Positions 4,163 to 56,566 of a DNA stretch of 64,000 bases are shown here, in pieces. How positions within the stretch are numbered: the first letter of the stretch is position 1; every line of letters begins with the position of its first letter. The notes under the pieces were generated by a model, which was given only the letters and a program-made list of their open reading frames with translations, searched no databases and was not told where the DNA came from. The position numbers were made by a program, and so were the translations under genes. The stretch is from assembly GCA_965219415.1 (NCBI GenBank), contig CBDCNP010000002.1, positions 4,448,001 to 4,512,000 of the forward strand, given 5' to 3'. The stretch is from Candidatus Marinacidobacterales bacterium. Lineage in GTDB: Bacteria > Acidobacteriota > Vicinamibacteria > Marinacidobacterales > DATDRI01.

Positions 4163-4380
4163 CCATCTCCGCATTTCGTCGATGTCCCTGGTTCGAAGCC
4201 TTTTCTACGTGTGGGAGAAGCGGCTCGCACGGTCGAGGGCTACACACCAACATCTCCATCGACCAACTTGCCGATCGCGTCGTGTCCAAAAACACAAACA
4301 CACTCAAGACCCACGCGCCGGGACGCATAAGGGGAAGATTTTGTATTGCAGTAGGTTACATCAGATTCTAATATCACCGG

Positions 4381-4880: not shown

Positions 4881-5837
4881 ATGCGACACTTCCCCATTCC
4901 CGTATGGATCGCTGTGCTCGCCACGGGCTCGTGGCACAACCCCGCCACGGCCCAGACGTCGTGGCGGGGCTTGGTGGTTGCCCCCGAATCCCGTTGCTCC
5001 CCGTACGATGCTGACGACTATCGGTATCCGCAGTCTGTGGAGGACCGGGTCATCGCCGAGCTTGGCGGCGTCTATGGTCCCTACACGGGCCGCTGGTTCG
5101 CCAACAAACGGGAGACGGACATTGAACATATCGTCGCCCGCTCCGAGGCACACGACAGCGGACTTTGTGTGGCGGATGAAGCGACCCGCCGACGCTTCGC
5201 AACGGATCTGCTGAATCTGACGCTGGCAAGTCCCGGCGTGAACCGGAACCAGAAGCGCGCTCGGGATGCCGCGGAGTGGTTACCCGACCAGAACCGGTGC
5301 TGGTTCGCAGACCGTAGCGTCGCTGTCCGCCGAAAGTACGGTCTGACGATAGACGAGCGCGAAGCAGACACCCTTGAACGCGTGTTGTCTGGATGCCAGT
5401 CGACCGACCTCGTCATGGTGGCCCGTGGTGCCTCACCGGTCGCTCAGGACATCACCCCGACGGCCGCCGCTGCGCGTGAGATACTCACCCAGTGGGACGA
5501 CAACGACGATGGCCGTATCACGTGCGCCGAGGCTCGCACCCATGGGATCGCCCCGGTGCGCCGCGACCATCCGGCCTACGCCTATATGCGCGATGGTGAC
5601 GGCGACGGGATTGTCTGCGAAGCGGGTGGCGGTGAGGCCAAGGGCGGCACGGCGCGCCAAGGCTCGGCCCCCGCGACCAGCGGCAGTAGCGCGCTCCGTC
5701 AGTACGACGACAACGGCAACGGCCGCATCACTTGCGCTGAAGCACGGCGCCACGGGATCGCGCCAGTGCGCCGCGGCCATCCTGCGTATCCCTACATGCG
5801 AGATGCCGACGGGGACGGAGTTGTCTGCGAGCGCTGA
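4881..5837 (+). CDS. Secreted HNH (DUF1524-like) nuclease with two excalibur-like Ca-binding repeats
   Basis: Signal peptide; DIEHIVARSEAHDSG..NL..VNR.K; duplicated DDN..GRITCAEAR.HGIAPVRR.HPAY.YMRD.DGDG.VCE. Confidence 0.75.
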   Translation: MRHFPIPVWIAVLATGSWHNPATAQTSWRGLVVAPESRCSPYDADDYRYPQSVEDRVIAELGGVYGPYTGRWFANKRETDIEHIVARSEAHDSGLCVADEATRRRFATDLLNLTLASPGVNRNQKRARDAAEWLPDQNRCWFADRSVAVRRKYGLTIDEREADTLERVLSGCQSTDLVMVARGASPVAQDITPTAAAAREILTQWDDNDDGRITCAEARTHGIAPVRRDHPAYAYMRDGDGDGIVCEAGGGEAKGGTARQGSAPATSGSSALRQYDDNGNGRITCAEARRHGIAPVRRGHPAYPYMRDADGDGVVCER

Positions 5838-5839
5838 AC

Positions 5840-6009
5840 GGCGTCCTGTCGATGACAAACGCGACGTAGACGAAACCTTGCCACGTCGCAACGTAGGTGA
5901 GATCTGCCACCTAAAGGGCGTTCGGGCGGGCTGCTCGGAAGTCGCGACCGACCAGGTCCGGTGGTCGCAACGCCGCCTCATCCGGGAGCGTCGTCTTGAA
6001 CTGCTTTCC
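5840..6009 (-). pseudogene. IS3 family integrase internal fragment
   Basis: ADLTYVATWQGFVYVAFVID; ends at A tip 6010. Confidence 0.75.
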
Positions 6010-6107
6010 CGTCCTGTGCTAAAACTCAGCCCTTTTGAAATAGGCCATAAATCAGCAGCTTGGTGTCTGTGTTTGCGACCGGGCCCTTAGCTCCTGGAAA
6101 CAAGATT

Positions 6108-6434
6108 TCAACCCTTGACGAGCTTGAGCGCCCTCTTGGCAAGCACGGTCACGACCCCGGCATAAAGAGAGGTACTGACCTGATCGACGATGGCGTCCAG
6201 GGAACCGCCAATCACTTGGATGTGACTCAGTACGTCCGCACCTGCAGTAGCGCCGACTGCAAGAGTCAATACCAAGTAGGCTGTCGCGTCCTCAGCGTCG
6301 ATCGCCAAACCGCCATACACCAAGCCCAGAACAACCAGTGCGAGGGCCACGATCCCAGCGGGAACTGCCTCAGCGGCCAAGCCCTGCACAATCGCCAATA
6401 GCCAGATGAGGCCAACAATGATTCTGATTGCCAT
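6108..6434 (-). CDS. Small membrane protein
   Basis: 108 aa with multiple hydrophobic segments, AGGAG RBS. Confidence 0.7.
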   Translation of the reverse strand: MAIRIIVGLIWLLAIVQGLAAEAVPAGIVALALVVLGLVYGGLAIDAEDATAYLVLTLAVGATAGADVLSHIQVIGGSLDAIVDQVSTSLYAGVVTVLAKRALKLVKG

Positions 6435-6953: not shown

Positions 6954-7426
6954 GGGCCCCTTTGCTCCACGGGCGTTGCCCCGTTTCAACGCTACTACGG
7001 ACCCAGCCGCCACCGTCTCGTCTTCGACCGTTTTCCCGGGGCCTCCGGTTATGCGGTCTACCTTGCTCCGTCGATTTCTCGACGGGACGAGGACGGCTTC
7101 TCCAGTGGCTTGGTATGTCCTTGTCACCGTGCTGTCCCTACCACCCCGCCAGAGGGATGTGCCTCATCAGATAGTCTGACAACACATCCTGTTGCCTTCG
7201 TCCGACACGAGAAAACTCGGCCTCTGGGGTCTATTTTTTTGTCGGGGCCACCTATGGGTTCACTTGTGTTACGGCCCGGTGACTCGCTCACCATCCTCAA
7301 GATGGCTTTGTCAGTCAGCTTCATCCGTCTCGTTTCCTCCACGAACGTGACTCAAGCTACGGGGCGCTAACTTTTTCCCCGGTGGGACTCTCTCCCACTG
7401 AACATGCCAGCCTTCGCTGGACGCAC
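6954..7426 (-). mobile_element. Group II intron 5' fragment (approximately DI-DIII; no RT ORF, no DV/DVI)
   Basis: Minus strand starts GTGCGTCCAG at 7426; EBS-like CAAAAA and TCGTGTC; GGAGCAAAGGG DIII-like motif; second copy 56005-56400. Confidence 0.8.
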
Positions 7427-7497
7427 TCGTGTCCAAAAACACAAACGAACTCAAGACCCGCAACGCCACTCATCGCCGCGGCCTTGCTTCCTTAGGT

Positions 7498-8005
7498 TTA
7501 TTCTTTTACCGTGATTGTGATGGTTTCGCAGAGGCCGGGCTCGTCCAGGGTCCGGTGCTCGCCGTCTCCGAGCTGGAGCGCGAGCGTGTGCTCACCGGGA
7601 GTAAGTTTGCATTTCGATGACCGCAGAACCGTCCCCGAAGTGAACCCAAGGGTCGGCCTCGGGAATGAGCTCGCCAACGGGAAGGCATTCTGTATCGACA
7701 CCGATGTGATGGTGTCCGGCGCCAGGGTGGACGTCGCCCTTCGGCTCGAGAGTGATGTTCTCGGAGCCGAACTCGAAGGCGACCGGTGACGTGACGACTG
7801 CCCCTTGCTCCGGCTGGATGAACCAGACGCGCGGGGCGCCCGAGCCCTCCATATCCATCTCGTGCTCTGCCTCTTCGGTCGCGGCCTCTTCACCGCTTCC
7901 TCCGCCCGAAGAGCAGGCTGCCGCGAAGCCCATCGCGAAAACACAGGCCAATCCGATTGCGCAGGTTCCAAACCAAGTCGCCGGATGGCAGTGATTTTTC
8001 GACAT
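7498..8005 (-). pseudogene. DUF4399-like exported protein, frameshifted near 7605
   Basis: GHHHIGVD, VHFGDG in one frame; LTPGEHTLALQLGDGEH in another. Confidence 0.75.
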
Positions 8006-17561: not shown

Positions 17562-18067
17562 CGTTCCCGGTAGGGTCGAGGGCTGGCGCGGTGCTCCGTA
17601 GGCGCGGCCTATCTGTTTCTCCCCGTTTCCTGTGGGAGTTGTGCTCCGCGAAAAGTCGATCCAGCATCGATTGCGCGGTTTAGATCTGCCATGAGAGGGG
17701 AATACGGTGGCGGCGAAGACCGGACACATACCGGCGCGGGGCCGAGCTGGAGCGGGACAACCGGAAGATCGATGTCAACGTCGCGGTTAGCTATGCGCTC
17801 GACGAGCGGCTGGGGGTGTGGGTCCCCGTCGAGATGAGAGAGGCCTACGGCGACGGGCGACGACCGCTTGATGCACGGCCACCTATCACAACTACCGGCG
17901 TTTCGGTGTCGACGCCCGCGTGCTGACGCCCTGCGACTAGCTATCCCACCGGTGCTTGCGTTGTTTGCTGTTGGTGATGTGTACGTATCCCTTTGCAAAA
18001 AAAGCGCTTACGCTCCATTTACTGTGCGGCGAAGGTCGTGAGCGCTATTTTGGCTGTAATTTAATGC

Positions 18068-28575: not shown

Positions 28576-29024
28576 CGTCCTGTGCCAAAACTCGGCCTTT
28601 TAGAAATAGACCACAAATCAGCAGCTTAGACGCCCTTGGAATCCGCGCAGAATCCAGGGTATTTCGCGCCGCAGGGCTGACTTCCGACCCATGGGCTGAC
28701 GGATGAATAAATAGAAGGCACAGCGCGAGGATGGGGGGACCGCCTAATGGAATAACTAAATTATGTCTAAACATAAAAAATAATGTGTTTACAGTAGTTT
28801 AACTGGACACTATAATTCAGCGTTGCGCGGGTTCCTACGCCCTTGGGAATCCGCGCAGAATCCAGGGTATTTCGCGCCGCAGGGCTGACTTCCGACCCAT
28901 GGGGCTGGCGGATGAATAAATAGAAGGCACAACCGCTTCCATTGGCCAACCAAGCGTAGACACCTCTAATCCGAAACGTCCCGGCGCTACGGTCTTGAGT
29001 TCGTTTGTGTTTTTGGACACGACG

Positions 29025-42618: not shown

Positions 42619-42961
42619 GGTAGAGAATTCCAGTATCTACCTAGAGGAGTTCGCGCGCACCATGGTCGGGCAAGAGGAGCTTCACCAGATGGAGCTCAAG
42701 AAGATGCTCCGCGACTACAGCGAGGCGTCCGGCACCGACTAGCCATCTCCGCATTTCGTCGATGTCCCTGGTTCGAAGCTTTTTCTACGTGTGGGAGAAG
42801 CGGCTCGCGCGGTCGAGGGCTACACACCAACATCTCCATCGACCAACTTGCCGATCGCGTCGTGTCCAAAAACACAAACATACTCAAGACCCACGCGCCG
42901 GGGACGCATAAGGGGAAGATTTTGTATTGCAGTAGGTTACATCAGATTCTAATATCACCGG
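42619..42961 (+). repeat. Duplicate of 4039-4380 (bacterioferritin 3' end plus D end)
   Basis: Near-identical direct repeat. Confidence 0.9.
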
Positions 42962-55644: not shown

Positions 55645-56004
55645 CGTTTTTTTGAAGTCCTTACCCTTGGGGCGGGACTTATCATGGCAGGATGACCTGA
55701 CCCCACGGTTAGTACCACGTTGTATCTCAGTCATTCGGTGCTGACAAGGGCTGGTTGAAGCCGGCGTGGCAAAGCCGGTTTCAACCAAATCGTTTCAAGT
55801 TTTGTGTCTGTCTTTCCCCTGAAATGGGATGTTGTTAGGTCTGGTCGCCACCCTTGCCTATGGCGCCGTGGGGCGCTTCTTAGTTTATGGAAGGGACAGC
55901 CGAGTTTTGGCACAGGACGGGGGCGGAAGGCAAAGGCAGAGGACCCGAAGCTCAAGGAACTCGAGCGTGAGAATGCGCGCCTGAAGCCGTCGTCTCGCTC
56001 GGGT

Positions 56005-56400
56005 GGAAACGAGACGGATGAAGCTGACTGACAAAGCCATCTTGAGGATGGTGAGCGAGTCACCGGGCCGTAACACAAGTGAACCCATAGGTGGCCCCGA
56101 CAAAAAAATAGACCCCAGAGGCCGAGTTTTCTCGTGTCGGACAAAGGCAACAGGATGTGTCGCCAGACTATCTGATGAGGCACATCCCTCTGGCGGGGTG
56201 GTAGGGACAGCACGGTGACAAGGACATGCCAAGCAACTGGAGAAGCCGTCCTCGTCCCGTCGAGAAATCGACGGAGCAAGGTAGACCGCATAACCGGAGG
56301 CCCCGGGAAAACGGTCGAAGACGAGACGGTGGCGGCTGGGTCCGTAGTAGCGTTGAAACGGGGCAACGCCCGTGGAGCAAAGGGGCCCTGCTGCACACAA
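56005..56400 (+). mobile_element. Second group II intron fragment
   Basis: Near-identical to reverse complement of about 6954-7340. Confidence 0.8.
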
Positions 56401-56566
56401 CTCAAGTTCGGTGCGCGCGGATGAATAAATAGAAGGCACAACCCTCTTGATGGTGTTGCGTCCGAGTTCATGTCCGAGGCTCTTGACTGCGCCCCGCAGG
56501 CGCGTATATCCCCACGTCGGGTTCTCCCGTTCGGACACGACGGCAAAGCAGGTATAATCAAAGTTT

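Follow-up and report, generated by a model that had tools for sequence, protein, structure and literature searches.

The window analysed here is the whole 64,000-nt stretch of DNA (G000:C3:4448001-4512000) from a source genome, G000, of 8.05 Mb in 3 contigs, and on its minus strand a GTGCG that runs from 7426 lies immediately 3' of GTTTTTGGACACGA (7440→7427). What kind of element begins at this point, and how did it come to be set against the end of an insertion sequence (IS)? An earlier note on this DNA had read it as a group II intron specialised on transposon termini, and every one of the minus-strand coordinates that it gave (7426, 7204-7210, 7236-7241) matches the sequence. We conclude, with a probability of roughly 90%, that this is the 5'-terminal 473 nt of a decayed mobile group II intron, a member of a family that retrohomes into the end of an IS repeat by EBS pairing. 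The window contains the following pieces of this intron:

6954..7426, minus strand: intron nt 1-473 (domains I to ~III), 99.4% identical to a complete 898-nt copy and starting GTGCG
7264..7400, minus strand: conserved core of domain I (Rfam RF02003 group-II-D1D4-4, 120 bits, E 2.6e-26, full model 1-138)
55992..56403, plus strand: a second dead copy, intron nt 76-488, 98.1% identity, with other repeat sequence at both ends
17570..17639, minus strand: a third remnant, the last 70 nt (intron nt 829-898, ending ...CCCUAC), 100% identity

Both a GUGYG 5' end and the conserved domain I fold of group II introns are found in the window copy, and the assignment to this group made in the earlier note is supported by the GTGCG start together with an RF02003 score far above the gathering score of 49 bits; the second copy is also matched by this model (55961-56078(+), 53 bits). 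The coordinate 6954 is the break point of the window copy, at intron nt 473 of 898, and the copy is without domains V and VI, so that this truncation leaves it catalytically dead. All three intron remnants in the window are dead, and the copy at 6954-7426 is a fossil. In the second copy, the EBS-like segments TCGTGTC (56132-56138) and CAAAAA (56101-56106) lie where they had been reported. At 55940-56001(+), nt 76 of this copy is joined to a fragment whose translation, by eye, resembles the leucine zipper of an IS3 OrfA (..KELERENARLK..); the fragment follows another IS end, and the same composite is present at C3:4763003-4763414. The third remnant (17570-17639(-)) has CG after its 3' end and the end of another IS directly before it.

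A blastn search of the source genome identified 34 pieces of the intron family, and the sole complete copy (C3:4235463-4236360(-)) is 898 nt long and reads GTGCG...CCCTAC. Its frame is a 66-codon fusion of both ends of an RT/maturase gene, and copies of this mini-intron match the protein of a relative at residues 1-27 and 398-435 only; the window copy descends from this 898-nt, ORF-deleted derivative, from which ~370 codons of the intron ORF are gone. The 3' part of the complete copy contains a long stem resembling domain VI and a hairpin resembling domain V, the latter with a 2-nt bulge, and these helices are conserved and covary across six relatives, one of which has an intact ORF. The Rfam model of domain V (RF00029, gathering score 40) gives 24.1 bits in the complete copy and 31.2 bits in a relative from genome G008, and an Rfam search of the source genome yielded no RF00029 match that reaches the threshold. 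A reading of a catalytic 'CGC triad' in domain V, taken from an Infernal alignment, was dropped, as its register is ambiguous.

The sequence that precedes the intron is the end of an abundant repeat, which is also present in the window as unfilled targets:

7427..7459, minus strand: solo terminal inverted repeat ('D end', consensus of 128 ends), with its last 2 nt (CG) missing
4278..4293, minus strand: unfilled target, an intact IS end with CG tip (14-mer 4280-4293, tip 4278)
29009..29024, plus strand: unfilled target, an intact IS end with CG tip (14-mer 29009-29022, tip 29024)
42858..42873, minus strand: unfilled target, an intact IS end with CG tip (14-mer 42860-42873, tip 42858)

The 5' exon of the window copy, TTTTTGGACACGA, has 152 exact occurrences in the source genome, and within the window this 14-mer is found 5 times with at most one mismatch, against 0.05 expected and with 0 of 100 shuffles reaching 5. 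Intact, unfilled ends were found at all three positions (4278, 29024 and 42858) that had been listed as empty perfect sites. Beside the window copy, ~33 nt of the repeat are left with no IS body behind them, and next to this solo end is a fragment of a DUF4399 gene that ends at 7498 (a neighbouring ORF matches Pfam DUF4399). Across the 128 de-duplicated ends the repeat is conserved ~35-45 nt inward, the next two bases are C in 119/128 and G in 123/128, and conservation then drops; in addition, at three types of junction where an IS end abuts internal intron positions, the end stops at ...ACG. Therefore, the tip of the IS is CG, which puts the intron exactly 2 nt inward, in agreement with the earlier placing of the end 2 nt short of its tip. 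The outer CGACGG was considered as a palindromic target in duplicate, outside the repeat itself; that reading was rejected, since ~600 ends share CGACGG beside unrelated flanks, and it is also contradicted by the ends that stop at ...ACG against intron sequence.

An intact IS of ~1.35 kb (~C3:5128245-5129595), located through its transposase, carries these repeats on either side of a 375-aa open frame; its left repeat is perfect and its right repeat is a variant, and other right ends are perfect targets. No inverted pairs of the exact end turned up at a fixed distance, and right ends often differ in their core. The element has the inverted repeats around a transposase gene and the many copies by which a DDE (rve) IS is recognized, and no clear target-site duplication was seen at one intact IS copy. 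The best NCBIfam match of the 375-aa transposase is IS481 (NF033577, 93.1 bits), followed by IS3 (NF033516, 79.9 bits), and related transposases in this genome contain Pfam rve_3 and HTH_21. The label 'IS481-like' holds in that IS481 is the top match, but the NF033577 scores (93.1-95.6 bits) are below the family cut-off of 224 and IS3 comes second, itself at ~80 bits against a cut-off of 160; the accurate name for this IS is IS481/IS3-like. A related end, CGTCCTGTGCCAAAAC... (470 copies), pairs with the repeat in MITE-like elements of 67-450 nt, and the same two ends also bound a 1014-nt element with a truncated transposase.

The window as a whole is an IS graveyard, with 14 copies of one 61-nt IS end, several further end families and repeats of 1.0-1.3 kb, and the related end TCCTGTGCCAAAACT has 470 occurrences in the genome. 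A repeat of ~2.5 kb at ~15 loci of the source genome (for example L077, C3:3482288-3484782) has a 560-aa open frame that resembles a large serine recombinase when the sequence is read by eye, and it holds the IS end internally, with conserved sequence on either side.

The pairing segments of the intron and of its 5' exon are:

7204..7210, minus strand: EBS1 UCGUGUC (TCGTGTC 7210→7204), in the terminal loop of a domain I hairpin in the consensus fold
7236..7241, minus strand: EBS2 CAAAAA, within a run of 7 A (7241→7236), in an internal loop 5' of the EBS1 hairpin
7427..7433, minus strand: IBS1 GACACGA, the final 7 nt of the 5' exon
7434..7439, minus strand: IBS2 UUUUUG, its complementarity read straight from the sequence

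In the window copy, both segments pair with the 5' exon, EBS1 with IBS1 over 7 bp and EBS2 with IBS2 over 6 bp. A consensus fold built on eight relatives contains 11 pairs with double changes, and in it one arm of domain I has an internal loop with the A-run (EBS2) and then a three-way junction bearing a short hairpin, whose 9-nt loop contains UCGUGUC (EBS1) and whose closing stem shows a compensatory change from GUUU/GGAC to GCCC/GGGU. The folding of domain I that the earlier note had proposed as a check thus places TCGTGTC in the terminal loop of a covarying hairpin and CAAAAA upstream of it, in an internal loop of the same arm. Four types of 5' exon were found among the relatives, and EBS1 is altered with each:

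5' exon ...GACACGA, EBS1 UCGUGUC
5' exon ...GACAGUA, EBS1 UGCUGUC
5' exon ...GAAGGGA, EBS1 UCCUUUC
5' exon ...CCCAUGC, EBS1 GUUUGGG

Over 7 lineages, 47 of 49 EBS1-IBS1 cells are paired and all 7 pairs are double-changed; 0 of 500 shuffles reach any of the measures, and slid registers give 27-63% pairing. EBS2 covaries in alignments that were read by eye and not counted column-wise, with register shifts among lineages: it is CAAAAA/UUUUUG here, AUUUA/UAAAU in a sister lineage and GAAGUC/GACUUC in a third lineage. The proposed identities of EBS1 and EBS2 are borne out by the pairing of EBS1 across the lineages and by the way in which EBS2 shifts in step.

Relatives were sought in 61 genomes, of which 16 gave matches, with at most 8 candidates per genome scored, and the 898-nt form was found at 98-99% identity in genomes of two families. 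Within the close family (at least 97% identity, six genomes), 13 of the 14 fetched 5' junctions consist of the IS repeat, exact or with 1-2 mismatches. The exception is a G003 copy with an unrelated 5' exon; full copies with non-D exons had been named in advance as counter-evidence, and the count that came back is one non-D junction to 13 D junctions. This copy (L050, G003:C3:2013520-2014419) is a complete mini-intron whose exon pairs at 4/7 EBS1 positions and whose 3' exon starts CGGG, and it is an ectopic insertion or the outcome of a later rearrangement.

Complete copies have the form ...GGACACGA + intron + CG, followed by differing flanks, such that the repeat is restored as ...GA-intron-CG. 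At the 3' junctions in the source genome, where the genome-wide frequency of the CG dinucleotide is 0.104, CG follows the intron at 21 of 24 (one via a 2-nt extrapolation) and CA at 3 of 24. These junctions bear on the order of events, since the juxtaposition of the two elements could in principle reflect IS target choice, with ISs inserting beside or into introns. ISs do enter the intron, and their ends abut its internal positions 788, 826, 854 and others, but the 2 nt missing at the 5' junction reappear at the 3' junction of complete copies, which means that the intron splits a pre-existing repeat, and EBS-IBS pairing is a property of intron homing; an origin of the 5' junctions by IS insertion is accordingly given next to no weight.

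A second alternative is a single chance insertion into one IS end, after which the intron spread as a passenger when the IS or its surroundings were duplicated, with no site-specific homing. Some flanks have this appearance: four of the five 5' junctions in the source genome are IS repeat (the fifth belongs to the sister lineage), and 3 of the 4 D-type junctions have ~670-690 nt of upstream sequence in common, so that these three may be one event that was later duplicated; some copies in relatives also have 3' flanks in common. However, the 24 3' junctions in the source genome have 22 distinct flanks, the 5' exons represent different repeat subtypes and both left and right ends, both EBS segments are complementary to the site and change along with it, and an IS with a split end should not transpose, all of which makes passenger spread a very unlikely account. 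The intron family has made many independent insertions.

A search for the exon-intron junction in the genomes of 185,579 species gave 20 stretches, nearly all in MAG records of Candidatus Marinacidobacterales and one in a Vicinamibacteria record. A stretch from a Paludibacteraceae MAG contains no intron (about one chance match is expected, by estimate), and a match on a short contig titled Paceibacteria is a 53-nt fragment only; neither of these two was used. Among the public runs that hold L013:5300-6520, several are labelled sponge metagenome.

RNA libraries contain pieces of the intron, as found by comparing their contigs with the complete copy and its flanks. In 3 metatranscriptome runs and 1 DNA run, no contig joins the exons at the intron boundaries, and contigs of this kind cannot decide splicing. 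A long joint from 5353 to 6362 (side 22, depth 2.1, 6 extra letters) was considered as a spliced product and proved to be a further copy of the IS end. At three loci and in one variant, an identical AT-rich stretch of ~80 nt is followed by a 115-nt internal segment of the intron (nt 229-343); all four pieces are outside the window:

G000:C3:3297943-3298057, 115-nt intron piece
G000:C3:4523670-4523784, 115-nt intron piece
G000:C3:4938938-4939052, 115-nt intron piece
G000:C3:4166193-4166286, 115-nt intron piece

One metatranscriptome has contigs over the 115-nt piece at very high depth, and this piece may be a separately transcribed repeat.

The intron-encoded RT/maturase is missing from the window copy and from every copy in the source genome. 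A GIIM maturase domain has no match anywhere in this genome, and its single RVT_1 match (C3:3294405-3294785(-)) is weak, 31.3 bits, in a 269-aa open frame without GIIM; one of the 115-nt intron pieces is 3 kb away. The source genome has no cognate RT for the mini-intron. Five mini-intron genomes contain only fragments of the close RT. The earlier note had called for full-length copies with an RT gene, and this was answered in part: a Vicinamibacteria-titled copy of ~2.2 kb has the same 5' exon, the same EBS segments and an RT gene, but this gene is frameshifted, with frames of 181 and 253 codons. Among the genomes searched, the D-targeting lineage yielded no intact RT.

An RT/maturase is present in a sister lineage, whose introns (in G008, G022 and G016) are 81-85% identical to the mini-intron in the 5' part and follow ...GGATGAATAAATGGAAGGGA, with the insertion site in these three genomes directly after ...AAAUGGAAGGGA. 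The G008 intron spans 2010 nt, and its intact 436-aa protein contains RVT_1 and GIIM (TIGR04416, 343.7 bits against a cut-off of 300); across 55 genomes of the order, no other close RT is intact. An endonuclease domain is absent from this protein, and its nearest solved relatives are IIC reverse transcriptases (6ar1, E 1.6e-49). The inner sequence is conserved in each of 15 unfilled sister-type ends examined in G008, G022 and G016, and 13 of them continue CAG, after which the flanks diverge; the site is therefore the terminus of a second IS, with the sister intron 3 nt from its tip. In G008 the end that holds the intron lies a short way upstream of an inward-reading transposase gene, so the intron points outward. 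The claim of specialisation on transposon termini is strengthened by this sister lineage in the terminus of a second IS family, and the target was switched between IS families through changes in EBS1 and EBS2. A third lineage (L096, G016:C11, intron from 986) is 71.5% identical, and its 5' exon cannot be recognised as an IS end; the EBS2 loop of this lineage, GAAGUC, faces the exon sequence GACUUC, with a 1-nt spacer before IBS1. The non-IS exon of this lineage indicates that IS-end targeting is not universal in the clade.

In the source genome, 3' stubs of the intron outnumber pieces of its 5' part, 24 to 7 (5 with nt 1, and 2 with nt 76-488). Many 3' stubs start straight after complete ends of different IS families, with recurrent starts at intron positions 788-795, 826-829, 840 and 854-861, and the genome lacks the 5' halves that would match those stubs. 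Insertion of ISs into the intron is thus evident, and the loss is one-sided, affecting its 5' parts.

Taken together, the homing site of this family is formed by the 13 outermost nt of the inverted repeat that ends the abundant IS481/IS3-like IS; the intron enters between ...GGACACGA and the final CG, and the site is specified by EBS1 (7 bp) and EBS2 (5-6 bp), which pair with the repeat. An IS offers this site in both of its repeats, and the intron is always directed outward from the IS. The intron RNA presumably reverse-splices into DNA, and endonuclease-independent reverse transcription would follow. In endonuclease-less group II introns, cDNA synthesis is primed from nascent DNA at replication forks, and the same step may have served here. 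The ORF-less form would have been moved in trans by the RT of a full-length copy that has since been lost from the source genome. The insertion would cripple the IS end, because the transposase-binding part is split from the tip and RNA splicing cannot mend DNA. Points that weigh against this explanation are the non-D exon in G003, the common upstream sequence of three junctions in the source genome, the sub-threshold score of domain V, the lack of an intact D-lineage RT and the existence of a third lineage outside IS ends.

The insertions could also have been kept for a benefit to the host or to the IS, for example as a brake on transposition, as opposed to simple parasitism of a multi-copy site that is safe to enter. 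Some 20 or more ends belonging to one IS family were struck in one genome, and two lineages entered two IS families at nearly equal distance from the tip, which would suit such a role; on the other hand, all copies in the source genome are decayed and the RT was not retained, nothing points to selection, and the pattern is the one left by a selfish element with a neutral and abundant target. We consider a retained benefit very improbable.

What homing to IS ends implies for this clade can be stated more tentatively. It is possible, at odds somewhat short of even, that the endonuclease-less clade is a specialist hyperparasite of IS termini that was retargeted to two IS families (2-3 nt from the tip), spread as an RT-less mini-intron, and became engaged with ISs in mutual attack. 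Sister lineages would have moved to the repeats of two IS families by compensatory change in EBS1 and EBS2, and the 898-nt non-autonomous form would have spread through two bacterial families that are now without its RT. ISs would in turn enter the 3' region of the intron and leave 3' stubs, so that each type of element attacks the functional ends of the other.

No new kind of biology is opened by this system; its interest lies in a natural covariation series, in the parallel targeting of two IS tips and in the wide spread of a mini-intron without an RT. It provides a second, independent and unusually well-documented natural case of group II intron homing to IS inverted repeats, with a record of dozens of junctions and of natural compensatory changes over four exon types, and it shows that targets can be switched between IS families via few EBS changes. 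In addition, it raises the testable possibility that introns can disable the ends of transposons at the level of DNA, and for annotation it accounts for a class of repeat junctions in very IS-rich genomes.

The intron would be placed provisionally as IIB-like, and it has both EBS1 and EBS2. Group IIC introns are described as having no EBS2 and a short domain I (PMC3753933, available text), so the covarying EBS2 argues that this is not a group IIC intron. The ribozyme of IIE/IIF introns is given as 450-700 nt without the ORF, and the intron resembles them in its small ribozyme, ~700 nt here, and in having EBS1 and EBS2 in domain Id, where they pair with the exon directly upstream; size and EBS layout are the only points that agree with the description of IIE/IIF in the available text of PMC3753933. 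The literature searched yielded no link from RF02003 to an intron class and no paper on this intron family. The class D motif LX3AX3PXLF[V/A]HW, as quoted in PMC4615759, is not visible by eye in the 436-aa protein, and judged by this quoted motif the intron would not be of class D.

Homing into IS inverted repeats is already known, since RmInt2 in ISRm17 has been published: in Sinorhizobium meliloti GR4, all copies of RmInt2 are described as lying inside the inverted repeats of ISRm17 (PMC4615759, available text). ORF-less copies and the targeting of mobile DNA are likewise known traits of group II introns in the available texts of PMC2882425, PMC3001079 and PMC7923331. The ORF-less introns of Thermosynechococcus, which are mobilised in trans (PMC2882425, available text), are similar in that non-autonomous copies proliferate within a genome, but the mini-intron genomes examined here are without a cognate RT, and mobilisation in trans would apply to the past only. 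Group IIC-attC introns likewise specialise on a site at which another mobile system recombines (PMC3001079, PMC7923331, available texts), whereas the present intron has EBS2, which IIC introns are described as lacking (PMC3753933, available text), and targets a transposon end instead of attC. The colonisation of a genome by way of an abundant IS that serves as homing site is shared with RmInt1 and ISRm2011-2 (PMC4615759, PMC3035460, PMC5894124, available texts), although the available text of PMC4615759, in which ISRm2011-2 supplies the targets, does not place the RmInt1 site in an inverted repeat.

The closest likeness in targeting is to RmInt2, which is also endonuclease-less, finds its site in both IS repeats and is directed by EBS/IBS pairing (PMC4615759, available text). 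The two differ in that RmInt2 belongs to ORF class D, the motif of which is not visible in the protein of the present family, and in the host phylum and the IS concerned, as far as the available text of PMC4615759 describes them. The site of the present family lies at exactly 2 nt from the IS tip. Its prevalent form is an ORF-deleted mini-intron, in distinction to RmInt2 as presented in the available text of PMC4615759.
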